34,996 nt of DNA from a virus (lineage: Duplodnaviria; Caudoviricetes), in the IMG/VR virus record IMGVR_UViG_3300017785_001872, positions 1 through 34,996 of that record; one strand, 5' to 3'. A model generated the notes under the pieces. That model made no database searches and was not told the origin of the DNA. It saw nothing but the letters and a program-made list of their open reading frames with translations. Shown in pieces: positions 12,716 to 34,996 of this stretch. How positions within the stretch are numbered: the stretch's first letter is position 1; each line of letters starts with the position of its first letter. Both the position numbers and the translations under genes were made by a program.

Positions 12716-12738
12716 AAAGTCCCCGCACTGGGCGGGGA
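12714..12738 (-). terminator. Intrinsic terminator at the convergence of the two arms
   Basis: Stem tccccgc/gcgggga (12720-12738) with an A-tract at 12714-12718 that reads as a U-tract on the minus strand. Confidence 0.75.
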
Positions 12739-12810
12739 TTAAAGGTTGGAAGGAGCTAACTTCCGAGGAGAAACAGATGTAAGGAGTATCTGTTCTGCCT
12801 AGAGTATAAA

Positions 12811-15865: not shown

Positions 15866-15883
15866 ACGTATCTCTGTTAGGGT

Positions 15884-15908
15884 AAAAAAAGGGGGAGTTA
15901 TCCCCCTT
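15884..15908 (-). terminator. Intrinsic terminator between the HTH gene and the primase gene
   Basis: Stem aaggggga/tccccctt with 4-nt loop, followed by a U-tract on the minus strand (A run at 15884-15890). Confidence 0.7.
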
Positions 15909-15928
15909 AACCTTGCGGTACTTTTTTA

Positions 15929-16183
15929 TTACTTGCGTTTAAAACTGTTGATTAGCCGTGCTATTTCTTTTGCATGAGATTCGTGTGGGTCATGCGCACC
16001 AGTAAACCAATTGTACACAGTCTGCCTACTCACCCCTAGCTTTGAAGCTATGGATACTACAGGGATACCTAGACCAATGCACGCTTTGCCTAATGTAACT
16101 CCAAGGCGGGTTTTGTCCGCCTCTTTGTTTAGCTGAACAGTTCTAAAGCTGTAGCCAATGCTCATTTTTAGTTGTCGCTCCAA
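15929..16183 (-). CDS. Cro/XRE-like helix-turn-helix protein (likely start 16165)
   Basis: IASKLGVSRQTVYNWFTG HTH signature. Confidence 0.8.
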   Translation of the reverse strand: MERQLKMSIGYSFRTVQLNKEADKTRLGVTLGKACIGLGIPVVSIASKLGVSRQTVYNWFTGAHDPHESHAKEIARLINSFKRK

Positions 16184-17061
16184 GCATTAACTACGTCTGC
16201 AAAATTAGCTTTAGGTGCGGTAGGTGACGCATCAGCTTTCTTAGCACGTTTAACAACAGGTTCTTCAATTGGGTCTTCCGGTTCTTCAGCAACTACTGGC
16301 TTTAGTCTTGGGAGATTACTGCTAGGCAACTTAGCAACACCGTCTTGCTGGGCTACAGTTAATTGAATAACTCGTTTGCAATCGGGAGATTGTTGTGCAA
16401 CTTCTACAACATCAATCTCTTCTTCAGTTAAGTGACGCACAGGTGTGAATTTCAAAACATCAGCTGTCTCGTTCTCATCAAAACTAATCTGAGTAACGAT
16501 ACGGTCAATGCTCTCACCGTTAGCTGGCAAAAACTTAATGTAGCTTTCAAACGGATGAGTATTACCTACACCCTTACCAAACAGAGATTTAGCAGGGATA
16601 CTAAATTGGTATATATCACCACTCATATCGTTCTCAAGCACTACTGCTATACGGCGATTAAAGCGACATGCACGACCTTTGCCATTATTACCTGAGCCCT
16701 CTATGTTTTGTGGACATGTGGCGCAGGAGACACCTTGTGGGTTACTAGCCTTGGCATCGGGTACATCACCTAAGTTAGACCAACAGTCAGGCAGAGTTGG
16801 TGCCGCATCAGGGTCATACGAAGACGCATAAAATTGACGAGATACTTTTGGTAACGCATTAATGATAATAGCGTTTAGGAATCCATCCTTAACTCTACCA
16901 GCTTCTTTGCCATTAACAATCCTTCGGAATACTCCCTTAGCCATAGTAATACGACGGGTTGTGGACCCACCACCACTATCTGCTAAAGCTTTAGACAACT
17001 CACTAACTTCACGACCAGCTACAGCCGTTGACTGCTGTTTAAAAATTGATAGATTACTCAT
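16168..17061 (-). CDS. Putative single-stranded DNA-binding/annealing protein with Cys cluster
   Basis: 297 aa in the replication module; CWS...CATCPQN...GRAC; flexible acidic/Pro tail ending in W-S-D-N; AGGAG RBS. Confidence 0.5.
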   Translation of the reverse strand: MSNLSIFKQQSTAVAGREVSELSKALADSGGGSTTRRITMAKGVFRRIVNGKEAGRVKDGFLNAIIINALPKVSRQFYASSYDPDAAPTLPDCWSNLGDVPDAKASNPQGVSCATCPQNIEGSGNNGKGRACRFNRRIAVVLENDMSGDIYQFSIPAKSLFGKGVGNTHPFESYIKFLPANGESIDRIVTQISFDENETADVLKFTPVRHLTEEEIDVVEVAQQSPDCKRVIQLTVAQQDGVAKLPSSNLPRLKPVVAEEPEDPIEEPVVKRAKKADASPTAPKANFADVVNAWSDN

Positions 17062-17456
17062 TCCTTGCTCCTTCTAACGACCACGGTGTATTTGCTGTCT
17101 GCTTGTAAACCAGCAGGTAACAGTTCGGGATTCTCTTCGAGAAACTGCTTGAGGTTAGTTTGATGTATCCTCTTCTCGAGCAGGGGGTATGCATCATGTT
17201 CTTGTATGAACTGATACATAGAATCCCAATCAGTCGTCCAGTACCGTGTATCAACTTTACGAATGATTGTCCCTGCGGGGGTTCTAATACTATCGGCATT
17301 ATTCTCTCGACAAACATCGAGCATTTTTTCTGCCAATAAGTCTTGTTGCGCTTTTAGCTCAGAGTCCTGTACTTCAAACACTTCCTTCATTTCTGCTCGC
17401 TTGTCCCGTATTTTTATATAAATCTCGGCAAGCTTATCTGTTCCAACATTTTCCAT
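17058..17456 (-). CDS. Conserved phage replication-module protein (N-terminal coiled coil)
   Basis: 132 aa; AAGGAG RBS; ATGA overlap with the SSB-like gene. Confidence 0.7.
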   Translation of the reverse strand: MENVGTDKLAEIYIKIRDKRAEMKEVFEVQDSELKAQQDLLAEKMLDVCRENNADSIRTPAGTIIRKVDTRYWTTDWDSMYQFIQEHDAYPLLEKRIHQTNLKQFLEENPELLPAGLQADSKYTVVVRRSKE

Positions 17457-17481
17457 CTTAGCTCCTTCTCAATGAACTTCT

Positions 17482-17510
17482 ACTATACCACATCTTTTGA
17501 CATTGTCAAA
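17482..17510 (-). promoter_or_regulatory. Sigma70-type promoter with a palindrome over the -35 box
   Basis: TTGACA-16 nt-TATAGT with extended -10 TG; TTTGACA-T-TGTCAAA palindrome at 17496-17510. Confidence 0.65.
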
Positions 17511-18900
17511 CTATATTTTCAATTTCTTGTCTATATAAGTCAATTATTTTTGTGTGGTTGGTTATGTTACCTTGCAACATCTTATACAACTTTGCTTCTA
17601 CTTCACTTCCTGTTATATGTACTATAGTCATAGGATTCTTTTGTCCCGGACGGTCAATGCGTGCGTTAGCTTGTAAGTATGTTTCTACGCTAGTTACAGG
17701 AGCATACCAAATAATTACATTTGCGGCTGTTAGTGTTAACCCGTGGGAAGCGGCTTGTGGTTGTATTACTAATACTCTAGTAGTATCTTGTTCTTGAAAG
17801 CGGTTAATAATATCATGCCTTTTATTTATAGACACTTGCCCATTAATAATTTCAGCTACAATTCCACTTTTAGTTAGGTAGTCATGTAGTAAATGTATAG
17901 TATGTGTAAAGGGGACAAACACTAAAACTTTGTGTGATGCTTCTTCAATAACTTCTTTAATAACTTGTAGTCGGTTGGATACATCAAACTGTATAACTTC
18001 CCTAGTATCGGTATAGACCGCACCGCCTGATATTTGCAATAGCTTATTAATATTAGTGGCTGCATTTACAGAAGTTACATGCTCTCCTGCTGCTGACATA
18101 GTCATAAGTTTCTTAAGGGTCCGATAGTATTTAACCTGTTGTGCAGTTAAAGGCGCATCCCGTTCTACAAAAGTTACATCAGGCAAATCTAAGCATTGAT
18201 CTTTCTCAAACCTTATAGCTGGTTGTAATACTGTATGCACAATCTGCTGTGCTTGGGGTTTAGGTAGCCAACGGTAAGTGCCAACTTTATACATAACTTG
18301 GTCACGGAACTGACCGTAGAATTTAGGAGTATTGTCGGGATTAATAATCTTAGCTAAGCCATATGCGTCTACTGGGGACTGAGCCGCAGGAGTACCCGTT
18401 AGCATCCAAACACCCTTAACCGTTTTAGCAATATCTCTAAGTGTTTTCCATCTAGTAGTCTGCGCATTCTTATATGCACTAGCCTCGTCTACTACAATCA
18501 AATCAAAGCCACCGTTTATTATGTCTTCTTTAATAATATCTACACCATCAAAGTTAACAATAACAAACTCAGCGCCTTCGTTAAGTATTTTCTTTCTTCG
18601 CTTAGGTGTGCCGTGGGCTATATCACAAGTGCGGTGTATGGCAAACTTAAATAAGTCTTGTTGCCATGCGGACTTCATAATAGATAGTGGGCAAATTACA
18701 AGCACACGACGAATTAAACCTAACTGCATTAGGTAGTCGACTGCCCATATTACACTAGCTGTTTTACCTGTACCTTGTTCGTTAAAACAAAATGCCCTAC
18801 GGTTAAGCGTTAGAAATTCAGAAGTCTGCTTTTGGTGAGCAAACGGTTTAAACTTTCCGGGCCATCCATAGTCAGTTAAGATACTATTTTTTTGAGACAT
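17506..18900 (-). CDS. SNF2-family (superfamily 2) helicase
   Basis: EQGTGKT, DEAS, LTGTP, HGLTL and QANARIDRPGQ motifs; start at 18900 preferred because the track start (19032) lies deep inside the HNH gene. Confidence 0.9.
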   Translation of the reverse strand: MSQKNSILTDYGWPGKFKPFAHQKQTSEFLTLNRRAFCFNEQGTGKTASVIWAVDYLMQLGLIRRVLVICPLSIMKSAWQQDLFKFAIHRTCDIAHGTPKRRKKILNEGAEFVIVNFDGVDIIKEDIINGGFDLIVVDEASAYKNAQTTRWKTLRDIAKTVKGVWMLTGTPAAQSPVDAYGLAKIINPDNTPKFYGQFRDQVMYKVGTYRWLPKPQAQQIVHTVLQPAIRFEKDQCLDLPDVTFVERDAPLTAQQVKYYRTLKKLMTMSAAGEHVTSVNAATNINKLLQISGGAVYTDTREVIQFDVSNRLQVIKEVIEEASHKVLVFVPFTHTIHLLHDYLTKSGIVAEIINGQVSINKRHDIINRFQEQDTTRVLVIQPQAASHGLTLTAANVIIWYAPVTSVETYLQANARIDRPGQKNPMTIVHITGSEVEAKLYKMLQGNITNHTKIIDLYRQEIENIV

Positions 18901-22765: not shown

Positions 22766-24575
22766 AACTTTCTCCCATCCCCGACTCGCAATTTAAAGGT
22801 AGCTCCATAGCCCACTTAGGGCGCATTCTCATACACATCTCTATATATTCTTTTCCAATCTCAGCTTCATGCTCAGGTACAACACAAGCAATCGCATCAT
22901 GCACGGTCATCACAACTCTATATTTTTTATTAACCATGAGCATCTGCTCCCCAATAATAATTCGGGCTAATGCTTGGCAGACATTCTCAATAACTTTCCC
23001 ACCGTATATCTTAGTAGGTACAATAGCTTTACCTTTTCTGGTATCGTAAATAAACTCATCCTTACCCTCTTCGTTACGCATCTTGCGTAGGTTTGGATAC
23101 TTCATATACAACCCGTTAGGTAGACGAATACCTTTCCTACCCTCGACAAACAACACACCTGTGCGCCCTAACTGCACAGTTCGGTTTGCAATTATTGCCC
23201 CAAGAGCCAATCCCGCTTGTCTCCAAAGCTGAGGTATCCAATCATAAGTTTCCCTATAGACTCGGATAATACGATCGGCCTCCCCCTCTTCAATTTCCAC
23301 ATTGAATGTTTTGAGCTGTGCTTGGAATTTCTTACTGCCCATGCCGTAGCCACATCCCAATATCGTCGTCTTACCAACGAACCGCTCATCCTTGCTAATT
23401 TCTTCTTGCGCCTTGTTATAAATAGACGATGCCATGATTTTGTATACATCTTCTCCCCTTTCAAATGCGTCAACCAAATCATTCTGTTCTGCCAGCCACG
23501 CTAGAGTCCTTGCTTCTATTTGACTAGAGTCAGAGTCCACAACCACCGATCCCGGAGAAGCCTTAATTGCATACTTAAGAGTCGAGCCTCTTGGTAGGTT
23601 CTGTAAGTTTACTTTATCGTCACCGCCCCAACGACCTGTATGTGCCGCATAGTAGCGTAGTGGTATGGGGAATAAGCCTCGCTGCGCTATTTCAATAAAC
23701 CGCTCAGTCCTTGTTTCTTCTAGGGTAGACTTAACACCAAGACGCGCTCCCGCTAAAAATTGCACCGCTGGATTTTCATGTTCAAGCAAAGCTTTAAACC
23801 CTTCATCGGTCTTAGCAAATGCCCATGTTTCCTTGCCTGTAGCTGGACTTATCTTGGTTGGTGGTACAACATCTAGTACTTGCAATATCTGAGCAAACTT
23901 GTCATTACTCATTAGGTCATCTTTACTACTAGCCACCATTGATAGCAGTCTGTCTTTCTCTGCCGTTATTTCACCTAAGTGGTCATATAGTATATTGCCA
24001 TCGAGCCATAGCTTAGGTTCAGTAAACATACGGATAGTCAGGTCTATTAACCGCAACTCAGTAGCGGGAAAGTCGGCACTTAGTATCTCAAACAAGGACA
24101 TCGTAAGAGCCACATCGTTCTTACAATATTCACCATACTGTGCTAGGTCTTGAGGGGTAAAGTCTATACGATACTTACCCTTGGCATCTGCTACCTCTGT
24201 ACCTTTCACTCCAAGGTTATAGTGTTCAGCAAGCTTAGCTAGACTACCGCCAACTTCTGTACCATGTATCGCCCTAGCCATGGACAAGGTATCTGCAATA
24301 CCCTTAGGTCTAATATCGTATTCCCAATTAAGAATAGCCATATCAAAGATAGCGTTATGGGCTACCACAATATGCTTGTCGAGTTCGAAACCATCAAGGA
24401 ATGCTTTTGTATCTGCTTTAGTACCACTAAACCAAACGGGGCCCGCCCCTTCTTCGCACACAGCCACACCGATAGTCTCAAACTGCTCGCTACGGATATA
24501 CTCTTCCGTAGTCTGTTTGGTTAAGGAGAAGGTTTGGGAATAGTAAGTTTCGAAATCTATGCAAAAAAGTTTCAA
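22752..24575 (-). CDS. polA: Phage family A DNA polymerase with 3'-5' exonuclease
   Basis: Exo motifs IDFET, HNAIFD and YCKND; HTGRW; motif A DSSQIEAR; motif B KTTILGCGYG; motif C VHD; TTG start. Confidence 0.93.
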   Translation of the reverse strand: MKLFCIDFETYYSQTFSLTKQTTEEYIRSEQFETIGVAVCEEGAGPVWFSGTKADTKAFLDGFELDKHIVVAHNAIFDMAILNWEYDIRPKGIADTLSMARAIHGTEVGGSLAKLAEHYNLGVKGTEVADAKGKYRIDFTPQDLAQYGEYCKNDVALTMSLFEILSADFPATELRLIDLTIRMFTEPKLWLDGNILYDHLGEITAEKDRLLSMVASSKDDLMSNDKFAQILQVLDVVPPTKISPATGKETWAFAKTDEGFKALLEHENPAVQFLAGARLGVKSTLEETRTERFIEIAQRGLFPIPLRYYAAHTGRWGGDDKVNLQNLPRGSTLKYAIKASPGSVVVDSDSSQIEARTLAWLAEQNDLVDAFERGEDVYKIMASSIYNKAQEEISKDERFVGKTTILGCGYGMGSKKFQAQLKTFNVEIEEGEADRIIRVYRETYDWIPQLWRQAGLALGAIIANRTVQLGRTGVLFVEGRKGIRLPNGLYMKYPNLRKMRNEEGKDEFIYDTRKGKAIVPTKIYGGKVIENVCQALARIIIGEQMLMVNKKYRVVMTVHDAIACVVPEHEAEIGKEYIEMCMRMRPKWAMELPLNCESGMGESYGDC

Positions 24576-24976
24576 GGTTTCTCCTTGGGGCTACCGCAGT
24601 CAGCTTGCCGAGAAACAGATGATAGTTCTTTACGAGGAGTCATAGGGAGAACAGTAGTAGCACCATAGGTCTGCCAATATGGGTCGTTCATATCTTTGCC
24701 AAGGGTAAGAGTGTCAACACTATCCTGTAGTAGCGTATTCATAATTTGTTTGGTAAACAAGTCCCCTCGAATACTTTGCATCTTAGCCCATAGCTTATTA
24801 ATTTCCTCAGTAGTAAGAAACATTAAACCACCTTGGGCATTTTTATCTTGCACCCTAGCTTGTACGGCATCAAGAGTCTCTCGCCACTTCTTAGGGTATC
24901 TACCCATAACGTCAGGCACAAACTCCTCGGGATTACTGTCCATCCGGCTAAGTAATATCTCTACACCTTTGTTCAT
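24572..24976 (-). CDS. Hypothetical protein
   Basis: 134 aa; AGGAG RBS; overlaps both neighbours. Confidence 0.7.
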   Translation of the reverse strand: MNKGVEILLSRMDSNPEEFVPDVMGRYPKKWRETLDAVQARVQDKNAQGGLMFLTTEEINKLWAKMQSIRGDLFTKQIMNTLLQDSVDTLTLGKDMNDPYWQTYGATTVLPMTPRKELSSVSRQADCGSPKEKP

Positions 24977-25277
24977 TTGTTTCTCCTATTAGCTCTTCAA
25001 AAAACTCACCTAACAATGTTAGGTTATCCTCATTAATTACAAATGCAATACCACCGTTATCACCGATAGCTTTTAGTTCTCTCTCTTGTAGTGGAGTTGG
25101 TTTATTGCTACCGGCCTTGCACTCTATGGCTATGAACTTACCCTTAGCACAACAGATAATGTCGGGAACACCCGACCTACCAAACCCATGCGTTGCAGGG
25201 AAAAAGTAGTATACACCGTAAGACTTTAAAATCTTAACGGCTTTATCTTTTACTTTCTTTTCGGGAGTAGATGCCAT
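24948..25277 (-). CDS. VRR-NUC / Holliday-junction-resolvase-like nuclease
   Basis: TPEKKV...GVPDII...AIECKA...TPLQ. Confidence 0.85.
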   Translation of the reverse strand: MASTPEKKVKDKAVKILKSYGVYYFFPATHGFGRSGVPDIICCAKGKFIAIECKAGSNKPTPLQERELKAIGDNGGIAFVINEDNLTLLGEFFEELIGETNEQRCRDIT

Positions 25278-25283
25278 GCTTAC

Positions 25284-25311
25284 ATAATAACATGTAGTTG
25301 GACTTTGTCAA
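25284..25311 (-). promoter_or_regulatory. Sigma70-type promoter, probably giving a leaderless mRNA
   Basis: TTGACA-16 nt-TATTAT with extended -10 TG; predicted +1 coincides with the ATG at 25277. Confidence 0.6.
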
Positions 25312-25324
25312 GGAGAATTTTTGG

Positions 25325-25476
25325 TAGGGGAGTTGGGAGGAGATGTAGATTCTCTGCCTCCCTCAGAGTTATGGATTCGACTAGCCACAAGATTTCCTTA
25401 GGGGATAGCTAATCGAACAACAAAAGCACTTACATCTACAAGGCTAATGGCTTTTGTTGTGTATGAATTCCCCCTA
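25325..25476 (-). ncRNA. Candidate structured RNA (closing stem, three hairpins, loop-loop complementarity)
   Basis: Stems at 25325-30/25471-76, 25335-40/25357-62, 25376-85/25408-17 and 25418-27/25450-59; loops tgtagat (25344-50) and atctaca (25434-40) are complementary; strand inferred from neighbouring genes. Confidence 0.5.
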
Positions 25477-25482
25477 ACATTG

Positions 25483-26073
25483 TTAGGTCGTGGACAACGA
25501 CCATGAGGTCGTAGAACCATGGTATTTATTATGGAACTCGATAGCCCTATTTAGATACCATTGGGCTTTCTGTAAGTCTTCCATAACCTTACCATCTTTT
25601 AGTCCGGCACGACTGATATATTTAATAACATTACCTAGGTGATACCCTAACTCTTTAGACTCTATATAGTCTATTACTTCTATACCACCGGCCTTGTAAT
25701 GTGGAGGGTGATTAACCATATCTGCCTTAGGAGGTGCTTCCTCAAACCTAGGCATCCTTGGGTCTTGGTCTTGTTTAGCTTTAAGGTCAGCTACTAAATC
25801 TTTTAGCATTTCTGCCGTTACTTTTTTCTTAGCTACTCTACCTACGGATATGTTATGTACCCTCTCTACTAACTTACTTGCCTCTACCCCTGTCAAAGCA
25901 GTCATAGGTAGCTTTGCCATCTTAGTTACAAGATTGTGTTTCTTGTTATGCCTAACTTGATACACCATAGCAGGTGCAATACCTAACGCATCAGCTATTT
26001 CTTTAGGTGTAGCTTTTGGTTGCTTCTGCATATATGAGATAATCTTTGATGTTTTACTTAGTTTCTTCTGCAT
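25483..26073 (-). CDS. HTH + DUF3310 (SaV / T7 gp1.7-like) fusion protein
   Basis: N-terminal TPKEIADALGIAPAMVYQVR; C-terminal DMVNHPPHY...IEVID...GNVIKY..RAG.K...EDLQKAQWYL; AAGGAG RBS before 26073. Confidence 0.8.
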   Translation of the reverse strand: MQKKLSKTSKIISYMQKQPKATPKEIADALGIAPAMVYQVRHNKKHNLVTKMAKLPMTALTGVEASKLVERVHNISVGRVAKKKVTAEMLKDLVADLKAKQDQDPRMPRFEEAPPKADMVNHPPHYKAGGIEVIDYIESKELGYHLGNVIKYISRAGLKDGKVMEDLQKAQWYLNRAIEFHNKYHGSTTSWSLSTT

Positions 26074-26239
26074 GTGTTTCTCCTTGGCTCTTAACATGTT
26101 TGTTTAATACGGCTCTAATTGCATTACTTTTATTAGGCATCGCTGCGAAATAATCTGCCACTTCTCTGCTAACTCTAAGGGATATATAAACCATTGCCGG
26201 TATCTTACCTACCCCCCTACCTTTCTTTACTTCATTCAT
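26054..26239 (-). CDS. Ribbon-helix-helix (BrnA-like) DNA-binding protein
   Basis: GRG...ISLRVSREVADYF...IRAVL; GAGGAG RBS before 26239. Confidence 0.6.
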   Translation of the reverse strand: MNEVKKGRGVGKIPAMVYISLRVSREVADYFAAMPNKSNAIRAVLNKHVKSQGETHAEETK

Positions 26240-26417
26240 ATACTCCTCTCTCGGTTGGTGTGTTTGCATCTCTGTTTAACTTAAATAGATAATCTTCTCT
26301 ATGCTCACTAGGTGGAACGAACCCATGTTTCTTCCATGTCTTCAATACATCTGCTCCACCTGTCCACTTGAATGTGGACTTAAGGTCTGCTAGTAGCGTT
26401 GCTTTTTCTGTTCTCAT
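26232..26417 (-). CDS. Hypothetical protein
   Basis: 61 aa; GGAG RBS; ATGA-coupled. Confidence 0.65.
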   Translation of the reverse strand: MRTEKATLLADLKSTFKWTGGADVLKTWKKHGFVPPSEHREDYLFKLNRDANTPTERGVYE

Positions 26418-27274
26418 ATTTCTCCCTCTTGGCTAACATTGTTAGGTGCTACCAAGAAAATAGATTCGTTTACTCTAATACCGGCATTGGGTATAAGAGT
26501 CCCATCTTCTACTAACTTAAGTAACCCCACGGCTCTACGTACAAAGTCAGGCAATTCTTCGCTCGACTTTATTTCTAAGGGTGTATCCCCTTTCTTTACG
26601 GAGTAGTGTACACCATTTATAAACACAATATAGGTTTCTCTGTTATTAAATTGTTCTTTTAGTTTATTTGCAACACTCATTGCTTCTAAATTAATAGGTA
26701 AGTCGTCAACATAGTGAGCATTAGCCGGTTTAGCATCACCTCCTTCTACTACACTAAGGATAAACGCTTCATAGTTAGCTCCCACAAAACGCATCAAAGG
26801 TTTTTCTAACTTATTCCATGCATGTGATAAATCAAACTCTCGTTCACGCACTACACTTGATAAAGATTCTTTAGTCTTTTGTTCTGCCTCTGCCAACTGC
26901 TCGGTCATAGTTTTCTTACCAAAGTATTTAGCAACATACTTAAGTGCCTTATCAAGATGTATAGTCTTCATACCTCGACCACGCTCTCGTATATCGTTAA
27001 TACGTTGGTTCACTATGCAATACTTAAACCCATCCCTGTGCCAATCCTTATCAAGTTCACCTAGCACTTCTCTCTTATCCATAACTTTGAATCTATAGGC
27101 TTCGTAGTTCTTAGTCGAATGATTAGCCGTCATGTTAGCTTCTACAAAAGTCCATAGTGGATACTTTAGTGCCAGCTTCTCAACTAACTCTTTCATAACG
27201 GGGTCGATAATAGAAAGCTTCTTACCTTCGTTAAACTTGTCATGCTCTTTCAATTCTATATTTGCGTATGTCAT
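26414..27274 (-). CDS. Hypothetical protein
   Basis: Long ORF in the operon; GGAG RBS before ATG at 27274. Confidence 0.75.
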   Translation of the reverse strand: MTYANIELKEHDKFNEGKKLSIIDPVMKELVEKLALKYPLWTFVEANMTANHSTKNYEAYRFKVMDKREVLGELDKDWHRDGFKYCIVNQRINDIRERGRGMKTIHLDKALKYVAKYFGKKTMTEQLAEAEQKTKESLSSVVREREFDLSHAWNKLEKPLMRFVGANYEAFILSVVEGGDAKPANAHYVDDLPINLEAMSVANKLKEQFNNRETYIVFINGVHYSVKKGDTPLEIKSSEELPDFVRRAVGLLKLVEDGTLIPNAGIRVNESIFLVAPNNVSQEGEI

Positions 27275-27291
27275 ATATACTCTCCGTAAAA

Positions 27292-28158
27292 TTACCAATC
27301 AAACTTCTTAAGAATGTCATCAACCTTTGCCTTTACGCTACTACGCACATCAACACTTTCCTTGATAGCATCAATGTCAACACCTAACATTGTTAGTTCA
27401 AGGGAACGTCTTGCCTCCTCTAGCTTAGGGTCTTTGGTTATGTTCAGATGCGTGAGTAACCCACACAAATCCTGTGCGTTCGTGATAAGCGTATCGTGAT
27501 AACGCTTCTTGGTTTTCTCATCAACATCATCGCCATCTTCCTCCGTTAGTTTTTCTGAAATATGAGTAAGGGATTTATGCAACTTCTCCCATGGCTCACG
27601 CATCGCATCTTTAAGTCTGTCTTTGAATGCCGACTCATACTGCTCGCCCAACTCATCCATGTCAGCCTTAGGAATATCCAAACGGAAATCCCCACCCTCA
27701 GGCAATGGACTGAATACCAATCGGAATCCGAACTTGCTACGCAACTCCTCTATACTTGGATAGTCATAAGGGTTGAACAAGTCACCCATATGATGCTTAG
27801 CTAGGTCTATGAGGTCTGCATAGTTTGCATAGAAATCATCAATCATGGTAGTCATGTTGCTCTGATACGCATTCATGTTCTGCTTATAGTCTAAGAACAA
27901 GCTAGTGGGTAGTAGCCTAGCACCTTTGTCCGACCACGATAGCGTAGTCTGATTATGGTATAGCCTAGCCTTAGCAGCGTAGTCAGATATATTTTTACGC
28001 TTGTTAGTTCCAGCCATTAGATTCTTACGCACCTGTGCCGACCCACTACTTGCACTATTACTCGCAAGCACACTATCGGTCGCACCCTTGTCCAACTTGT
28101 TAGCAGTCCAAACACTAATGTTCAACTCTACTAATACTGCACTAGATGAAATACTCAT
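27292..28158 (-). CDS. DUF3150-like protein
   Basis: AVLVELNISVW...TL.W...GARLLP...DYPS.EELRSKF; clustered with the AAA and VWA genes; GAGGAGG RBS. Confidence 0.55.
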   Translation of the reverse strand: MSISSSAVLVELNISVWTANKLDKGATDSVLASNSASSGSAQVRKNLMAGTNKRKNISDYAAKARLYHNQTTLSWSDKGARLLPTSLFLDYKQNMNAYQSNMTTMIDDFYANYADLIDLAKHHMGDLFNPYDYPSIEELRSKFGFRLVFSPLPEGGDFRLDIPKADMDELGEQYESAFKDRLKDAMREPWEKLHKSLTHISEKLTEEDGDDVDEKTKKRYHDTLITNAQDLCGLLTHLNITKDPKLEEARRSLELTMLGVDIDAIKESVDVRSSVKAKVDDILKKFDW

Positions 28159-28331
28159 ACTTCCTCCTCGTTTAATTTTTTGGACAAAGCCCACATCTCA
28201 TTAATCAAATAATTAGCATCTCTTAACGCTTCGTTGAAATGCGTAGTCCTATGATGTTGAGGGCAGTCCTCATCAGCCTGTTCAGCCAACTGCAATAAGC
28301 ACATCCACAATCGTTTTTCTAACTCAGTCAT
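28155..28331 (-). CDS. Hypothetical protein (58 aa, not in ORF track)
   Basis: Hand translation MTELEKRLWMCLLQLAEQADEDCPQ...NEEEV; fills the gap, with ATGA overlap. Confidence 0.65.
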   Translation of the reverse strand: MTELEKRLWMCLLQLAEQADEDCPQHHRTTHFNEALRDANYLINEMWALSKKLNEEEV

Positions 28332-28335
28332 ATAA

Positions 28336-28590
28336 TTAATCCCTTGTTGGTTTACCGGCTAACTTCGCCATTTGATAAAACTTATTAGGTATCAGCTTCA
28401 TATCTACACTTACACCGAACGCACTACTGTGTCCTTCGTTAGCATAGATATGATGCGTATTCTCCTTACCACTACCTTGATACTTGTCCTCGTAAATCTC
28501 AGCGTCACACAACAAGTCCAATAGCTTTACTCCTATCTCAGCATCCACTACAAACTGCTTATACCCAACTGCTACGATTACTTTGCTCAT
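28336..28590 (-). CDS. Hypothetical protein
   Basis: MSKVIVAVGYKQFV...; AAGGA RBS before 28590. Confidence 0.7.
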   Translation of the reverse strand: MSKVIVAVGYKQFVVDAEIGVKLLDLLCDAEIYEDKYQGSGKENTHHIYANEGHSSAFGVSVDMKLIPNKFYQMAKLAGKPTRD

Positions 28591-28594
28591 AGTA

Positions 28595-29851
28595 TTAGTC
28601 CTTAATATGAATTGTTTTACCAACGGAGGCATAACTTGTGTTGCCTCCAACAATAGCCCATAGAATCGGTGCATCCCATTCATCCCCCCAATCACCTACA
28701 TATCCATCCGTCAGCATAATAATTGCTTCGGGTCTTATAGCATTCTCTTTTAGATAATGCATAACACAACAAGGGTCTGTTCCTCCACCACCCTGAGGCT
28801 TAGTCGACCTAACAATGTTAGGCACTTCCGAATAGCTATACTGCTCATGTCCGGCTACTTCGCTATCCCAATAAATCAAATCAACCATCTCAGGGTGAAC
28901 CTCTTGGGCAATACCTTGCACCTCAGCTAGAAACTCAGCTAACTCTCGGCTACCAACTGAACCACTTGTATCAATACCAATAACAAGATGCCCTACCTTT
29001 TCACCTATTAGGCTAGGCATATATACATCACCGCTTAGAAATCTACGGTTTACTCGTCTCCAACTGCTTGCATCTTTTGCGTTACATGTAGCCTTCACAA
29101 ACTCCTTAAGCATCTCCCGCCAATCAACCTTAGGCTCAAGCATCTCCTCTAGTTCTCGGCTCAGTCCACCCTTACCATTACCAATCTTCTTCTCAGCAAT
29201 CAAACCTTGGCGAATTGCTTGGTCAATGTCTCGTTCCAATTCCTTCTTGGTATCTTCGGATAATTCCTTAGCACCATCCCAATCATGGTCATCGAACCCT
29301 CCACCTTCGCCATCACCATCTTCATCTTCTTCACCATCTCCATCGCCATCACCGTCAGCCTTGCCACCCTTACCCTTCTTCTCCTCTTTGAGTAGGTCAA
29401 AGACTTGCTTGGTATTCATACCTCTGAACCGTTCATCAATCAAACCTATCGGTTTGTTGTTACGCTTAGGCATTGCTATTACTAACTCATCCTTATCCAT
29501 ATCTTTAAGTTCAAGATTGATTACATAGTCACACGCTTTGTTAGCTAGGCTATGGTTCTCATCATGCAACTTCTTCCATATAAACAAATGTCGATACGCT
29601 TTGTGCAATGTCTCATGCAACACTACAAAGGCCAACTCTTTGTCATCCAAACTCTTAACAAACTCACGACCATACTTCTCGTCACGACCGTTAGTGCTTG
29701 CAGTATCTATGTCATCTACTACGCTACTCTTACCGACAGTCATCAAGCCCGACCATAACGCATACTTAGGGTTACGCATGATTGCAATCTTTACCTTGCT
29801 CAACCTGCGTTCCTCTCTATCCTTTACTACTATTTCGCTATTACCTAACAT
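28595..29851 (-). CDS. DUF2201-type metallopeptidase + VWA-domain protein
   Basis: HETLH zincin motif; acidic Gly linker; MIDAS DTSGS; GGGGT; LTDG. Confidence 0.85.
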   Translation of the reverse strand: MLGNSEIVVKDREERRLSKVKIAIMRNPKYALWSGLMTVGKSSVVDDIDTASTNGRDEKYGREFVKSLDDKELAFVVLHETLHKAYRHLFIWKKLHDENHSLANKACDYVINLELKDMDKDELVIAMPKRNNKPIGLIDERFRGMNTKQVFDLLKEEKKGKGGKADGDGDGDGEEDEDGDGEGGGFDDHDWDGAKELSEDTKKELERDIDQAIRQGLIAEKKIGNGKGGLSRELEEMLEPKVDWREMLKEFVKATCNAKDASSWRRVNRRFLSGDVYMPSLIGEKVGHLVIGIDTSGSVGSRELAEFLAEVQGIAQEVHPEMVDLIYWDSEVAGHEQYSYSEVPNIVRSTKPQGGGGTDPCCVMHYLKENAIRPEAIIMLTDGYVGDWGDEWDAPILWAIVGGNTSYASVGKTIHIKD

Positions 29852-30023
29852 TGTTAGTTCTCCTTAAGGTATCTAATACATCTTCTGCTTTTAAACCACG
29901 ACTACGTAAATACTTCCTCGCTTTGCGTAAGGCCTTATCCTGAATCTGTCTTACACCCTCTCGGGATATTCCAATAGGGGTAAGCAACACATCAGTTTTT
30001 AACTCTAGCTTTTCCTTACTCAT
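29841..30023 (-). CDS. Stand-alone sigma70 region-4-like HTH protein
   Basis: GISREGVRQIQDKALRKAR compared with RpoD region 4.2 VTRERIRQIEAKALRKLR; ATGA-coupled to the AAA gene. Confidence 0.65.
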   Translation of the reverse strand: MSKEKLELKTDVLLTPIGISREGVRQIQDKALRKARKYLRSRGLKAEDVLDTLRRTNNVR

Positions 30024-31084
30024 AGCAAGTCTTCGTTGCGTTGCACCCAATCAGCAAACTTAGGTGAACTGAATGCAATAGCTTGCTTACTTGTAGACTT
30101 CGCAATGTTGATTGCAAAGCATGCTTGCCACTCGGGTTGGAATCTTTCAATGTAATCCATGAACTTAGGCATAGTCTGCTTATCTACTTTACTAATTGCA
30201 CCGAACACAATAATTGCACATGCACCGGCACTATCGGGGACTAAAGCATTCTTAGGGTTGGCAATTACTGAGTCCCATGTAGGAAGCTGGTCTGAGAACT
30301 CTATGTATGCTTGCATATCCCTAGATGCTGATTCGCCAATAGCTCCTGACATTGCACATATCAAGCTATCCGTATCTAGCTTTGCTCTTGCCCTAACAAT
30401 GTTAGATGCTCTCTCTAGTGAGCGAGGTGAAACAAATGCCATCTGCATCTTCTTTGGGTTGAAGATGTAAGGGTTGTTCGCTTGGTCTGCATCAAGATAA
30501 CTAGCCAATGCATGTGGGAATTGTCTTACCCATGCAATAATCTCAGGTGCGATATCATTCTCAATCGCCCACTCAATCCACTCCTCGGCATCAGGCTTTC
30601 TTACATGTAATGGGATAAGACGATTCCAACTGTGTGCCTTTAGGCTATCGCCCACGCCATCGCTTGATAGATTACCTGTTAGGAAAGTAATACTAGCTGG
30701 GTGTAAGAAGTTATCGCCTAGCCGTGGCTTGACTTCTAGCATCGGATGTAGCATGTTCTTAATTGGGTCTGCACCTTTAGTGAACTCATCTAACATTGTT
30801 ATGACGGGTTTACCGAGATGCATTTTAAATCTACTGTTAGGGTAGTAGGCCGTAGTCTTAGTCTCCCTATCAATGACGGGCATAGCAATATCGCCCAAGT
30901 CCATGTTAGGCACATCAATATAAGATACTTCGTGGTCGGGTAGACTTGCTGATAGCGTCTTAAGGATAGACGACTTACCAATCCCCGGTTCGCCACGCAA
31001 AAAGTAGCGATTCATTGGGGTTGAAAGAATGATGTTACATGCTTGCTTCAATGTAACGGTATTACCAAATTGTATTTCAGCCAT
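30020..31084 (-). CDS. MoxR-like AAA+ ATPase
   Basis: Walker A GEPGIGKS; Walker B MLDEF; TGN sensor; SPRS; AGGAG RBS. Confidence 0.85.
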   Translation of the reverse strand: MAEIQFGNTVTLKQACNIILSTPMNRYFLRGEPGIGKSSILKTLSASLPDHEVSYIDVPNMDLGDIAMPVIDRETKTTAYYPNSRFKMHLGKPVITMLDEFTKGADPIKNMLHPMLEVKPRLGDNFLHPASITFLTGNLSSDGVGDSLKAHSWNRLIPLHVRKPDAEEWIEWAIENDIAPEIIAWVRQFPHALASYLDADQANNPYIFNPKKMQMAFVSPRSLERASNIVRARAKLDTDSLICAMSGAIGESASRDMQAYIEFSDQLPTWDSVIANPKNALVPDSAGACAIIVFGAISKVDKQTMPKFMDYIERFQPEWQACFAINIAKSTSKQAIAFSSPKFADWVQRNEDLL

Positions 31085-31223
31085 GCTGTATTTCTCCTAG
31101 TTAAATAAGACTTCGTTGCTGTGTGATTAAACCTACTACCTCTACTCTGCTACACCTAACATTGTTAGGTTGTTTTTACCACTTATGAAACATTGATACA
31201 TAACTTTATTTAATATATACTAT

Positions 31224-31252
31224 ATTATAACACAGAATAATGTCTAAGTCAA
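31224..31252 (-). promoter_or_regulatory. Strong sigma70 early promoter (copy 2)
   Basis: TTGACT-17 nt-TATAAT with upstream A-tract; near-duplicate of 34769-34797. Confidence 0.85.
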
Positions 31253-31298
31253 GTTTTTTAGGCATGACTTATTATTATTTCGGAACGACCTAACATTG

Positions 31299-32237
31299 TT
31301 AGGCCACCCTCTGCTCATGCAATCTTCTCCACCCATAGCCATAGTATTTGCCGTTTGAGTCTTTACGAACTGCACCCTTAGGTAATTCCTTAGCCTCAAG
31401 AACTTCATCTCTGTGCCAACCAAGGATAAGAGAATACAAACCCTCAACTGCTCGCTTCTCAGTAAGGACATAGCCTTGTTCACCGGTCTTATACATTCGG
31501 TGACCAAAGGTTCTAGCCACTTGCAACAGAGCGTTATAGAACGAATCGTTCCTTGTCTCTGCGTTAGTATCAGTAATCAGCTTGAAGAACTTAACAATGT
31601 CGTCATCCCATCTTGCATACTCGGTTCGGTTTAACTCGGAAGGCCACTTCGCATGTGCCTCTTGCACACCAAGGACTCGTTCATACTCTTCGTCAGGGTA
31701 TGTGCTATTGCCTTTGAGTTTGCATATCCCTTGCATGTAGGTAAAGAACTCTTTGTAGTTTGCCCTAACATTGTTAGCCTTCTTCCGATTGATGACATGC
31801 ACATAGAACGGTTGCTCGTTCAGCACCTCATACTTACCCGTTTTCTTATTACGCTTTAGAAAGCATCCTTCTTTAGGTATTCTAGTATTGATACCTGTAT
31901 AGTCCATACCAATACATAATGAGTGGTCAAATATCCGAGCGTGGATACCTAACACTTCCTCGATAAAGTATGTAGTGGTAACACTATTGTATGAGTCGTT
32001 CTGTATCATCACTTCACCGTTAGGGCGAAAGGTAACAACAGGAGTCTTATACAAGATGCATTGCACCGAACCATCTTCGGTCTTATCAATCTTATAAGAG
32101 TTCACATTGTGCCTATGCCCTAAGGGTCGAACCTCTACTGCTCTGCCACGAATAGGCTTAGTATCCTCCCATCGCTTAAGGGCTTGCTCATAGTCTACTA
32201 TGTTATAAATGCCTGAGTTTCTTTGTTGTCCGTACAT
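31299..32237 (-). CDS. Early hypothetical protein
   Basis: 312 aa; GGAG RBS; stop codon lies inside a palindrome copy. Confidence 0.75.
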   Translation of the reverse strand: MYGQQRNSGIYNIVDYEQALKRWEDTKPIRGRAVEVRPLGHRHNVNSYKIDKTEDGSVQCILYKTPVVTFRPNGEVMIQNDSYNSVTTTYFIEEVLGIHARIFDHSLCIGMDYTGINTRIPKEGCFLKRNKKTGKYEVLNEQPFYVHVINRKKANNVRANYKEFFTYMQGICKLKGNSTYPDEEYERVLGVQEAHAKWPSELNRTEYARWDDDIVKFFKLITDTNAETRNDSFYNALLQVARTFGHRMYKTGEQGYVLTEKRAVEGLYSLILGWHRDEVLEAKELPKGAVRKDSNGKYYGYGWRRLHEQRVA

Positions 32238-32238
32238 A

Positions 32239-32442
32239 TTATTTCTCCCCTAACATTGTTATGGCCTTGGCACGCATAGCATCTGCACCTTGGTTAAATC
32301 CCTCACAGAATATCGCACGCTCAGAGTCGCTAAAGATATTCCCCAACTGCTCATCGAACTCGTAGAACGCATCGTTTGCATCTAATACAGTATCGTCAAT
32401 CTCTTTAACTGTCGCTGCCAAGTCATGTTGTTTAGTTTTCAT
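32239..32442 (-). CDS. Early hypothetical protein
   Basis: 67 aa; acidic; tightly packed with neighbours. Confidence 0.65.
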   Translation of the reverse strand: MKTKQHDLAATVKEIDDTVLDANDAFYEFDEQLGNIFSDSERAIFCEGFNQGADAMRAKAITMLGEK

Positions 32443-32620
32443 TTGCCATATCCCTTATCTTATCTAGTTGTTCGTATAAATCTTCTCTACCACATGAGTC
32501 CACTATCTCTACAAGCCTAGCCATATTTGCAGGACTCTCTCGCCACTTGCGTCTAGAATGCTCACTACCATTTACTGCATGGAATGCTTGCAGTAAAAAT
32601 ATCTTATCCTCCCCATTCAT
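32432..32620 (-). CDS. Early hypothetical protein
   Basis: 62 aa; GGAGGT RBS. Confidence 0.65.
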   Translation of the reverse strand: MNGEDKIFLLQAFHAVNGSEHSRRKWRESPANMARLVEIVDSCGREDLYEQLDKIRDMANEN

Positions 32621-32787
32621 AGGTCTACCTCCTCTATAGCGTATGTGCGTGAACCAAACTTCTTCATGCTTTCTTTTAAGTGGGACATAGTGCTTTCGGC
32701 TATGTCATAGGTTAAAAAAGTGCCTACTACTTCAACATTACCTAGTTCATCAATTTCTACAATCTGAAATGCCTTCTCGTTAGTCAT
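32617..32787 (-). CDS. Early hypothetical protein
   Basis: MTNEKAFQIVE...; GAGG RBS before 32787. Confidence 0.6.
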   Translation of the reverse strand: MTNEKAFQIVEIDELGNVEVVGTFLTYDIAESTMSHLKESMKKFGSRTYAIEEVDL

Positions 32788-33040
32788 ATATTGTTCCTCT
32801 CTTATTGGACAAATAGCCTTCGATAAACATAAACTTATCATGGTCGCTTGGGTTGTTCGGATACTTATACATAATGCTATAAGGGTTGTTAGTCCTAAGC
32901 CATAAGGTGTATGCATTTTCTGCTCTATTGCGTAAGAGTTCTTCTCTCACAATTGCTCTATGCATATGCTTGCTAGAACCTGTAACACCGTGAAGAGTAT
33001 CTTTCCAATCCAACTCTTCTTGCATCTTATTTATATTCAT
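32780..33040 (-). CDS. Early hypothetical protein
   Basis: MNINKMQEEL...; GGAGGAG RBS before 33040. Confidence 0.6.
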   Translation of the reverse strand: MNINKMQEELDWKDTLHGVTGSSKHMHRAIVREELLRNRAENAYTLWLRTNNPYSIMYKYPNNPSDHDKFMFIEGYLSNKRGTIYD

Positions 33041-33207
33041 CGCAACTCCTCCCAATAAGTTAGTGGTATTTCTTGAGCAACCTTTATCGCAGTAACAGGA
33101 CACTCTGCACTAAGGGTAATACGGTAGTCCTTACCATCTACTGTGTTACGCACTTCGTGTAACACTCGCTTTGACCATCTGTTATCTTCAATACATGTTG
33201 CAATCAT
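33037..33207 (-). CDS. Early hypothetical protein (56 aa, not in ORF track)
   Basis: Hand translation MIATCIEDNRWSKRVLHEV...YWEELR; AAGGAG RBS; ATGA overlaps on both sides. Confidence 0.6.
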   Translation of the reverse strand: MIATCIEDNRWSKRVLHEVRNTVDGKDYRITLSAECPVTAIKVAQEIPLTYWEELR

Positions 33208-33416
33208 TTCTTCTCCTTGTCCTGCTCTCGCAGGGTTGGCCTAACATTGTTAGGCTTGGTTGGTTCAGTTAATAAATAGAAAAACGGATTTACTGCTTTT
33301 ATTACTTCTACCTTCTCAGCGAATGTAGCACTAGATAAAATTCTACTCAATAGCGAATTAGCAATAGCCTCTTGCTCTCGCTTTGATAACCTTCGCTTTG
33401 TATACTCCTTCATCAA
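33204..33416 (-). CDS. Early hypothetical protein
   Basis: 70 aa; GAGGGG RBS. Confidence 0.6.
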   Translation of the reverse strand: MMKEYTKRRLSKREQEAIANSLLSRILSSATFAEKVEVIKAVNPFFYLLTEPTKPNNVRPTLREQDKEKK

Positions 33417-33595
33417 TCCCCCTCAAAAGTTTTAATCCAATCAACACGAACTGTAGACAAGTCTAACCACTTCGCTTCACGCTTATGGTCGGGCTTATCT
33501 ATTGGGTAATTTACCAATAACCCATGCTCACCCATACGCACTACCTTATAAAACTCAGGTGCATCGGGCTTGCGATATAACTTCATTACTTTCAT
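33413..33595 (-). CDS. Early hypothetical protein
   Basis: 60 aa; AGGAGGT RBS. Confidence 0.65.
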   Translation of the reverse strand: MKVMKLYRKPDAPEFYKVVRMGEHGLLVNYPIDKPDHKREAKWLDLSTVRVDWIKTFEGD

Positions 33596-33747
33596 TCCAA
33601 CACCTCCTTGATTAATTTCTTGACGGCCTTTTCCAACTTACGCTTGGCTAGTCGCTTAGCAGTAGGCTTACCCCCTCGGTTGCAACAACACCTACAATTA
33701 ATGCCACCACTACCTACAACTGAGAATCTTTTATATATACTTTTCAT
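33592..33747 (-). CDS. Small basic Cys-cluster protein (51 aa, not in ORF track)
   Basis: Hand translation MKSIYKRFSVVGSGGINCRCCCNRGGKPTAKRLAKRKLEKAVKKLIKEVLE; AAGGAG RBS; ATGA overlaps. Confidence 0.65.
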   Translation of the reverse strand: MKSIYKRFSVVGSGGINCRCCCNRGGKPTAKRLAKRKLEKAVKKLIKEVLE

Positions 33748-33950
33748 TCAATCTCCTTTTCGGTATCGTCTTCAAAATTATATGGCTCGTCACGCATATC
33801 CTCATCATGCTCATCACGCAAGTCTTCAAGTTCTCTAAAGTAGATAAGCAATTCTTTTTCTATATACTCAGGTAAACAACTAGCTAAACCCTCGGTCTTA
33901 CCGTCTGACCAAGTAATACTCATTCGCCATGATTTTATTGTTTGCATCAC
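33744..33950 (-). CDS. Early acidic hypothetical protein
   Basis: 68 aa; very acidic C-terminal half. Confidence 0.65.
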   Translation of the reverse strand: MMQTIKSWRMSITWSDGKTEGLASCLPEYIEKELLIYFRELEDLRDEHDEDMRDEPYNFEDDTEKEIE

Positions 33951-34150
33951 ATTGTCCTCTTAGGGTTAGTAAAGCATAAGTCGCTTGGGTTGTGAATATA
34001 CTGATATGCACCTTTCGAGTAAGGTATCTGCACAATGTGCTTAACCTTCTTGGCATTCTTCTCACCACACACCAGACAACTAAAGTAACCTAGGGCTATT
34101 CTCCTATGGTCAATCTCTTCGCCACACTCGCAATCAATTCCATATAACAT
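33947..34150 (-). CDS. DksA/TraR-type C4 zinc-finger protein
   Basis: CECGEEIDHRRIALGYFSCLVC matches the CxxCGxxIxxxR...CxxC pattern (one residue shorter); ATG lies inside a palindrome copy. Confidence 0.65.
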   Translation of the reverse strand: MLYGIDCECGEEIDHRRIALGYFSCLVCGEKNAKKVKHIVQIPYSKGAYQYIHNPSDLCFTNPKRTM

Positions 34151-34159
34151 TGTTAGGCC

Positions 34160-34438
34160 TTATCTTGGTTGGGTTCGTTCGATGATGGACTCCAAGCTTC
34201 TACCTGTTGCCATGCATATAGATAGAATAGTAGGCATATCCTCTTGAAGTAATCCTGCAATGCCACTTAAGAATGCATGCTGAGCATACATATATGCTTT
34301 GGTCTTTGGCTTGAGAGCATTGGCCTTGGCATAACGCATCCATGCATGGGCTACTGTTTGCGTAGTAGACATAACATTGTTAGGGCGAACGGGAGTATTG
34401 TTTGTCCCTGTTGTATCTAAGTCTAGTTGTAATTGCAT
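34160..34438 (-). CDS. Early hypothetical protein
   Basis: 92 aa; GAGGG RBS. Confidence 0.65.
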   Translation of the reverse strand: MQLQLDLDTTGTNNTPVRPNNVMSTTQTVAHAWMRYAKANALKPKTKAYMYAQHAFLSGIAGLLQEDMPTILSICMATGRSLESIIERTQPR

Positions 34439-34441
34439 GGT

Positions 34442-34540
34442 TTAGTCCCTCAAAAGAAATACAGCGATATGAACAAGCATGTAACATACAGTAAGTATGA
34501 ATATTGCAATAGTGAATTTTAAAGAATCAAAGAATTTCAT
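34442..34540 (-). CDS. Small membrane peptide (32 aa, not in ORF track)
   Basis: Hand translation MKFFDSLKFTIAIFILTVCYMLVHIAVFLLRD; GGAGG RBS. Confidence 0.55.
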   Translation of the reverse strand: MKFFDSLKFTIAIFILTVCYMLVHIAVFLLRD

Positions 34541-34683
34541 TTATATCCTCCTAGTTTAATAAGTGCATAGTTGGTGTAGTCTGCATCGTTACCGACTCGG
34601 GCATAGGAAATACGAATGCAATTCCAAGACATAGGGATAATGCTTGCTACTTGGTATATCAGGCTACTGGTCTTTACTAACAT
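34537..34683 (-). CDS. First early ORF (48 aa, not in ORF track)
   Basis: Hand translation MLVKTSSLIYQVASII...KLGGYK; AAGGAG RBS; ATGA overlap with the next ORF. Confidence 0.55.
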   Translation of the reverse strand: MLVKTSSLIYQVASIIPMSWNCIRISYARVGNDADYTNYALIKLGGYK

Positions 34684-34768
34684 ACAATCTCCTTGGTTGG
34701 CCTAACAATGTTAGGTGGTTTACAAAAATATAAATGAGGCCGTTTCTTTATTCTCATATATATCTTAT

Positions 34769-34797
34769 ATTATAACACAATATGTTGTCTAAGTCAA
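34769..34797 (-). promoter_or_regulatory. Strong sigma70 early promoter (copy 1)
   Basis: TTGACT-17 nt-TATAAT with upstream A-tract. Confidence 0.85.
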
Positions 34798-34877
34798 GTT
34801 TTTTGGGCAGAAACCGACCCTCGTTCCGAAACGGATTTCCCCTAGACGCACGGGCTACCACTCTCTTAGGAACTGTC

Positions 34878-34897
34878 ATTTTGGCGAAAGCCAAAAT
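34878..34897. other. Perfect hairpin ATTTTGGC-GAAA-GCCAAAAT
   Basis: 8-bp stem with GAAA loop, 14 bp from the last palindrome. Confidence 0.7.
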
Positions 34898-34919
34898 TAC
34901 CAAGGGAATGACCTAACAA

Positions 34920-34996
34920 TGTTAGGTGTTAGGTGTTAGGTGTTAGGTGTTAGGTGTTAGGTGTTAGGTGTTAGGTGTTAGGTGTTAGGTGTTAGG
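34920..34996. repeat. Terminal tandem array (TGTTAGG)x11, running off the window end
   Basis: 77 bp of perfect heptamer; the first unit is the right arm of the palindrome at 34912. Confidence 0.95.

Follow-up and report, generated by a model that had tools for sequence, protein, structure and literature searches.

A putatively stoperator-like array of palindromes tiling the early arm of a group of tailed phages, with an unclassified candidate binder

The Streptomyces phage phiC31, which is temperate and has a known repressor, carries multiple dyad sites for a phage protein, some of them within genes. The stoperators of Cluster A mycobacteriophages are described, in the text available from two sources, as asymmetric 13-mers that are oriented with transcription and bound by a monomeric helix-turn-helix (HTH) repressor in temperate phages (L5 gp71 and the TipsytheTRex repressor; PMC9283540, PMC6550527). 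For the Cluster O mycobacteriophages, the accessible part of the source reports 17-bp dyad repeats in more than 30 copies genome-wide, with one motif in five near-identical phages and most copies away from promoters (PMC4351075), and for phage T5 the available portion of a preprint places repeats in the untranslated regions of the long terminal repeat (bioRxiv 10.1101/866236). Here we describe an array of a 15-bp palindrome, CCTAACA-W-TGTTAGG with the core TAACAWTGTTA, in the virus record IMGVR_UViG_3300017785_001872 (Duplodnaviria; Caudoviricetes), which was analysed over its entire length, positions 1 to 34,996 (hereafter the window). The array is best read as stoperator-like, with the protein of the first early gene, gp1, as an unclassified candidate binder.

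Selected sites in the early arm

Along the early arm of the phage, the palindromes form a series of DNA sites maintained by selection. An exact scan of the window found 17 cores between 25011 and 34914 and none in 1-25000, while 100 dinucleotide shuffles gave a mean of 0.07 cores and a maximum of 1, which confirms the first-pass annotation of this DNA in its claim of 17 copies, eight of them perfect, none in the first 25,000 positions and fewer than 0.1 by chance. The spacing, put there at about 130-1430 bp, measures 134-1425 bp (coefficient of variation 0.58). According to gene calls made in this analysis, ten of the 17 sites are wholly coding, two lie over a start codon, two over a stop codon and three between genes, and the centre base on the transcribed strand is A in ten sites and T in seven, the site being a dyad that is not oriented with transcription. 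Contigs of run X1, which may be the source sample, span all 16 sites of 24900-34900 with 0-1 differences per piece and none within sites.

Of a phage genome of about 63 kb the window covers 35 kb. Complete relatives measure 59-68 kb, with structural genes on one strand and early and replication genes on the other, starting beside the terminase small subunit gene. By estimate, the exact 15-mer occurs in about 560 viral stretches. Among 80 loci gathered through homology to the AAA ATPase, independently of the motif and with duplicates kept, 79 carry a repeated class of palindrome, which in two of them is the weak class of the relative G025. The 16 complete relatives, ten of which were reached through motif search, have 11-27 cores each, and 271 of their 283 cores lie inside the early arm, from the first gene to VRR-NUC (9.5-16.9 kb), so that the analogous end-restricted palindromes proposed for a search in related phages do exist. 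Outlying sites, one or two per genome, are found in the replication region (G006 18316 and 25870; G033 37759; G034 28411; G010 27423; G024 24324). One relative has a capsid protein that shares 64-70% identity with its counterparts in HTVC023P and Pag-Yong1; HTVC023P and DSL-LC04 have the virion module in common with the group and lack both the early module and the array, and no array was found in these two phages or in the 50 of 64 kb of KPP25 that were scanned. Neither a tyrosine integrase (PF00589) nor ParA (PF13614) was detected in any of 18 relatives, in searches that did not include serine recombinases or ParB. The absence of ParA and the chance-level counts in the host genomes searched (see below) speak against the earlier analogy with parS, matS and Noc sites.

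Selection is evident in the codons under the sites. In a comparison of 64 de-duplicated rows, sites fall at the same codons in the AAA gene (41 and 17 rows), the VWA gene (41), the 300-aa gene (38), the 312-aa gene (27) and VRR-NUC (13). Within the 300-aa gene, same-motif rows have CTA in 34 of 34 Leu, ACA in 37 of 37 Thr and TTA in 37 of 37 Leu codons, against 3 of 7, 1 of 8 and 0 of 10 in other-motif rows, and an Arg codon of the AAA gene is AGG in 31 of 32 same-motif rows and in 1 of 9 others, a contrast that is not a clean p-value since the class labels are partly defined by the tested sites and the rows are related. The codon test suggested earlier has thus found codons near-fixed in same-motif genomes and free in the others, which, together with the confinement to the early arm, bears out the claim of a selected, region-restricted dyad site. 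When 10,418 alignment columns were scanned against spacer class, the top two were amino acids under a site.

Spacer and half-site change across the whole array between close relatives, and they do so repeatedly. The CCTAACA half-sites are separated by 1 bp in most genomes, by 0 bp in G008, by 2 bp in 11 rows and by 3 bp in L440, and other half-sites stand at matching positions in G026 (CCTGACA), G029 (CCTGATAC), G030 (ATACTGTC) and L452 (CTTATA). On a tree of 60 rows, made by a quick method from three early proteins with the site codons left in, spacer 2 accounts for nine changes, at least eight of them forced by well-supported branches, and two spacers are mixed in G003 (11 + 6), G040 and L426. 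Because the spacer-2 label switches repeatedly on the tree, mixed-spacer genomes exist and prokaryote genomes show no enrichment, the binder is probably encoded by the phage.

Early promoters and the candidate binder gp1

The scan for sigma70-type promoters gave fewer matches overall than shuffles, so only the quality and position of P1, P2 and P3 (Table 1) count. Six of the eight perfect sites are the nearest sites on either side of these three promoters (P = 0.002, post hoc). In a survey of 140 promoter matches from 58 sequences, in which a few promoters are counted twice, a site lies within 60 nt downstream in 53% and within 60 nt upstream in 33%, against 7.6% at random for each, and overlaps the match in 1 of 140 (5.4% expected). 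Of the earlier description of the sites as mostly inside genes and not at promoters, the first half stands and the second is not supported. At P3 the last site usually lies upstream, with a hairpin and T-run between site and promoter in 14 of 32 rows (by eye). Since the sites flank the early promoters and the last one is usually ahead of the replication promoter, the array and the early transcription domain have roughly the same extent. Also noted by eye upstream of P3 was a conserved hairpin, its loop reading (T/G)AATCTACAT, at about 25340-25420 of the window and in many relatives, with no Rfam match.

Table 1. Palindromic sites, promoter matches and associated features of the window (- marks the strand where given)
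Feature	Position	Strand	Context
Site, perfect	25009..25023		within VRR-NUC gene, 33 nt ahead of next start
Site, perfect	25473..25487		covers HTH-DUF3310 stop; upstream of P3
Site, 1 mismatch	26432..26446		3' end of 294-aa gene
Site, 1 mismatch	27383..27397		within 300-aa DUF3150-like gene; codons fixed in same-motif relatives
Site, perfect	28808..28822		within VWA gene; same column occupied in 41 same-motif rows
Site, 1 mismatch	29844..29858		provides VWA gene ATG, immediately 3' of its AAGGAG
Site, 1 mismatch	30392..30406		within AAA ATPase gene; same column in 41 rows
Site, 2 mismatches	30789..30803		within AAA gene, codons preceding an acidic pair that we take to be Walker B; 17 rows
Site, perfect	31155..31169		AAA gene 5' leader, ~55 nt downstream of P2 -10 box
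Site, perfect	31289..31303		covers stop of 312-aa gene; upstream of P2
Site, 1 mismatch	31764..31778		within 312-aa gene; 27 rows
Site, 1 mismatch	32249..32263		gene end, 12 nt ahead of 312-aa gene start
Site, perfect	33240..33254		within 70-aa gene
Site, 2 mismatches	34143..34157		provides ATG of 67-aa zinc-finger gene
Site, 1 mismatch	34370..34384		within 92-aa gene
Site, perfect	34701..34715		~55 nt downstream of P1 -10 box, right ahead of ribosome-binding site
Site, perfect	34912..34926		upstream of P1
P1, sigma70-type promoter match 11 of 12	34769..34797	-	internal early promoter; first promoter beyond window
P2, sigma70-type promoter match 11 of 12	31224..31252	-	ahead of AAA gene
P3, sigma70-type promoter match 11 of 12	25284..25311	-	ahead of VRR-NUC and PolA (replication operon)
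AAA ATPase and VWA/DUF2201 genes (N4 gp24-like ATPase)	28595..31084	-	core of array-bearing early module
GATC-, GCGC- and GGNCC-free stretch	24441..34996		last copies 23548, 23744, 24440
Tandem half-site array, 11 TGTTAGG units to contig end	34920..34996		first unit is the right half of the last site

As the binder of the palindromes we lean towards gp1. Among 40 genomes with the first gene, close pairs (AAA identity of at least 0.82) have a first-gene identity of 0.43 when the motif is the same (n=60) and 0.23 when it differs (n=17), and nine other families show no comparable drop; at an AAA identity of at least 0.78, two other families are weakly lower in different-motif pairs (0.30 vs 0.32; 0.58 vs 0.61). 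A site lies within -400..+900 of gp1 in 38 of 38 gp1 rows, whereas the replacement first gene of the G025 type has an exact core in that interval in 0 of 5 loci, two of which end within 900 nt; in L552 a copy with two mismatches stands at +809 from the replacement gene. A degenerate TAGGGT-NN-ACCCTA, a post hoc motif, was found near the first gene in 5 of 5 replacement-gene loci and in 8 of 38 gp1 rows. G025 itself has core proteins that are 92-93% identical, yet it lacks both gp1 and the array, and the distinct motif of G029 is paired with a distinct first protein in all three non-duplicate loci examined. Of the binders named earlier, none of those tested follows the motif: neither the ribbon-helix-helix (RHH) protein nor HTH-DUF3310 diverges with the motif in close pairs, and a motif-less close relative retains both of them and the Cro-like protein at ordinary identity. 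The tests covered families of sufficiently universal occurrence, which the sigma4-like gene did not reach.

The gp1 family has 367 representatives at 50% clustering. The predicted structure (predicted local distance difference test, pLDDT, 79) is all-helical and has two domains: an N-domain, in which one helix carries a conserved W-x-R, is joined by an acidic linker, modelled as disordered and with low confidence, to a helical hairpin at the C-terminus. The segment of helices 3-4 has a median net charge of +3 and a conserved Trp. If the hairpin were to dimerise, such a two-domain build could accommodate spacers of 0-3 bp. Foldseek found no match at E <= 0.001 in the PDB or a viral library, and fold searches gave generic helical matches, the best of which covers the C-terminal hairpin only (VIA-align Z 6.1, root-mean-square deviation 2.3, 45 residues). 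An atlas search returned unnamed viral clusters, with DUF3102 at 0.88 as a mere lead, and no gp1 homolog was found among deposited phages. The replacement first proteins reach hhalign E values of 0.013-0.39 against gp1, at which homology is not established, and the G025-type protein also ends in a helical hairpin.

Several observations weigh against gp1 as binder and against a role of the sites in early transcription. Two relatives, L549 and L552, lack the gp1 family yet retain six and five exact cores; the first proteins of G025 and L549 are 72% identical while their motifs differ, and gp1 subfamilies of about 25% identity share a spacer (G027/G005, L431/L429). The residual test gave no gp1 signal for spacer 1 versus 2 (p 0.50; 4 spacer-2 rows), there was no specificity column among the 10,418 alignment columns, and the close pairs are not independent. 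If gp1 and its neighbouring sites travelled on one exchangeable cassette, this would give part of the covariation pattern. Moreover, gp1 matches no Pfam family; for the co-varying DNA-binding gene that the first-pass annotation proposed to look for, it is a candidate by its divergence with the motif. As for transcription, classical operators overlap the promoter core, which the present sites avoid; the downstream bias could be due in part to the free space that 5' leaders offer; P3 looks leaderless, and the window's lineage has one further site past P3, inside VRR-NUC.

Taking these points together, we tentatively propose, with somewhat less confidence than we place in gp1 as binder, that a gp1 dimer on the sites is a roadblock to the elongating polymerase and so lowers early transcription. 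Host sigma70 polymerase would start at promoters of the P1/P2 type on the first-entering arm, gp1 would be made first and would occupy the sites that flank its own promoter and those that follow at intervals of ~600 bp, and the replication promoter P3, at the edge of the array, would mostly escape the roadblock. The earlier proposal of a dimeric protein that coats the early region thus survives in its roadblock option, as the best reading, and not in its region-marking analogy, while entry, shielding and tethering are further possible roles. We further speculate, and regard it as rather doubtful, that this is a lytic group with an immunity code but no lysogeny, in which the first-made protein, of no classified family, coats the 10-13 kb that enter first, in its own genome as in later-arriving kin, and silences or stalls them; lineages would escape through joint changes of this protein and of the spacing or spelling of 15-25 sites, via mixed-spacer states.

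Alternative explanations

The sites could instead serve the entry or protection of the DNA, a protein bound every ~600 bp holding, pulling or shielding an early arm that enters first until a second step brings the rest. The early arm adjoins the terminase small subunit junction and would therefore be packaged last and ejected first; the sites avoid promoter cores, and in 6 of 12 genomes (bounds set by hand) they are spaced more evenly than at random. First-step-transfer DNA of T5 is described as lacking restriction sites, and the window arm has no GATC (24.7 expected) and no GCGC (16.4 expected), which leaves room for a role in DNA entry; in G001 the GATC-free gap of 8817-19325 matches the site range of 8906-18747. 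However, such zone-specific loss of GATC holds in only 4 of 12 genomes and is seen in the window, G001, G023 and G027, and in G002, G004, G007 and G010 GATC is near expectation despite full arrays. Analogous sites also occur in late genes, the early arm holding 13 of 25 in Pag-Yong1 and 9 of 26 in RHph_TM3_14A, and a mechanical role gives no reason to expect that specificity switches repeatedly. GATC loss and even spacing support first entry of the arm, without tying the palindromes to it, and we consider an entry function of the sites rather unlikely. Other words were also counted: between 24441 and 34996 there are 2 CCGC (139 in the first 25 kb) and 4 GTAC (79), and CCWGG is absent from the whole window.

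The array might also be regulatory and read by another phage protein, virion-delivered or early, with gp1 merely travelling alongside its neighbouring sites. This would suit the persistence of sites without gp1 in L549 and L552, and late-gene families are testable on just 3-6 spacer-2 genomes; in a whole-protein residual test of 33 families the RHH family has the lowest p for spacer class (0.018, exonuclease 0.032), and none of the 33 follows spacer 1 versus 2 once the number of tests is taken into account. Yet the identity of RHH does not fall in different-motif pairs, and G025 and G029 have a near-typical form of it; the array of Pag-Yong1 stands in a genome without a match to the RHH, HTH-DUF3310 or Cro profiles; and the gp1-less genomes have thinner arrays and lack an exact core at the first promoter, as expected from decay. 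We hold another phage reader to be unlikely. A host protein, with motif changes marking host switches, would account for the same half-site occurring with very different first proteins, but a one-base spacer change between phages that are 86-95% identical in AAA is hard to fit to it, and the prokaryote genomes searched show no enrichment: about 330 stretches in 596 Gb lie below a rough chance figure of about 1,100, 78 of 80 listed loci are single-copy and of mixed taxa, and the 13-mer occurs once each in 9 of 401 genomes from the order of a Comamonadaceae metagenome-assembled genome (MAG), against 12 control matches in 11 genomes. The host factor or operator considered by the first-pass annotation is hence very improbable. 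Hairpins in RNA, or recombination joints for gene shuffling, seem most improbable of all: the 15-mer does fold as a 6-bp stem (-4.4 kcal/mol) and many copies stand at gene junctions, but the would-be loop bases never vary and obey the dyad symmetry, G008 has a spacer of 0 (-2.1 kcal/mol), there are conserved copies far inside genes that look essential and keep a constant order, and no Rfam match was found.

Start of the early arm, isolates and known systems

The half-site tandem array claimed for the end of the window consists of 11 TGTTAGG units (Table 1). A sibling contig, L542, is 97.8% identical to the window across a 182-nt overlap and carries the start of the early arm that the window lacks, including two gp1 paralogs, more sites and, at the same place, an 8-unit half-site array behind a terminator-like hairpin. 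An assembly loop, considered as the origin of the tail, was rejected on account of this sibling, and as no other contig among all loci examined has the half-site array, it is real, variable in length and lineage-specific. Each of the two paralogs (L542:7097-9520, from 7097 and from ~9040 onward) stands behind its own promoter match, followed by a site; G005 (57558-58070 and 59011-59538) and its close relatives have this duplication as well. The interval from the terminase small subunit gene to the first promoter contains candidate packaging or end signals, namely runs of G, the palindrome CCCCC-N-GGGGG and a word resembling TAGTG(T/A)GTATAG (L542 ~6800-6920, G001 8680-8900 and G005 57050-57420).

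Elsewhere in the window, 5912-12715 encodes a protein of 2267 aa that matches a DarB-like antirestriction family at its C-terminus (phrog_10089, E 3.5e-51) and LPD39 weakly, and 26054-26269 encodes a 71-aa protein, present in most relatives and without Pfam match, that has a KGRG motif ahead of an RHH-like segment and presumably resembles BrnA-type antitoxins. A Gammaproteobacteria MAG contig has three near-perfect sites within 5 kb (L557:8528, 12608, 13634; G050:C17) and no match to the window proteins.

Two deposited isolates carry analogous arrays. In Pag-Yong1 (OL906435), which possesses the AAA, VWA and 300-aa genes, GTTCA-N3-TGAAC occurs 25 times, for the most part where genes adjoin and once 55 nt ahead of the first gene. 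Rhizobium phage RHph_TM3_14A (MN988472) follows the same genome plan, with TTACC-N6-GGTAA in 26 copies (shuffle expectation 0.02 and 0.06, respectively). Because both arrays reach into late genes and the first proteins have no detectable match to gp1, we count these isolates as analogues. OL906435.1, OQ594354.1 and PP438419.1, of 65,014 bp each, gave identical match scores and were deposited under three cyanobacterial hosts; at 69% GC, the true host of OL906435 may differ from the deposited one. A literature search found no paper on Pag-Yong1, MinM2 or Pra-JY27, and PMC9503304 concerns a different phage, judging from the part available. Nor was a paper on the present motifs found, subscription papers and supplements being outside the reach of the search.

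If the gp1 reading is true, an abundant, apparently non-integrating freshwater phage group controls its early programme via a DNA-binding family without known match, the specificity of which is re-tuned by half-site spacing, and the group would offer a natural series for studying the joint change of one protein and some twenty sites, many of them intragenic. It would also bear on the unexplained dyad repeats of the Cluster O mycobacteriophages, and the two isolates make the question testable at the bench.

Among known systems, T5 first-step-transfer DNA is similar, as far as its available description goes, in being a first-entering arm of about 10 kb with repeats and palindromes, whereas here one motif is spread through coding DNA. 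The likeness to phiC31, by description only, lies in multiple dyad sites, some intragenic, and the difference in its being temperate with a known repressor. With the Cluster O dyads, in the portion of their description at hand, the present sites have in common 7-bp arms, a short A/T-rich spacer, intergenic and intragenic copies and the lack of integrase or parAB; unlike them, the array is confined to one arm, is promoter-linked, comes in several motifs and has a candidate binder. With the Cluster A stoperators, again from partial sources, it shares about 20 copies of a short site beyond promoters (17 in the window, 11-27 in the 16 complete relatives), a proposed block of elongation and a motif and phage protein that diverge among relatives, whereas the present sites are dyads of variable spacer, restricted to the early arm and often deep in genes, and the 18 relatives are without tyrosine integrase or ParA. 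The array thus appears closest in form to the Cluster O dyads and, in its proposed working, most like the Cluster A stoperators.

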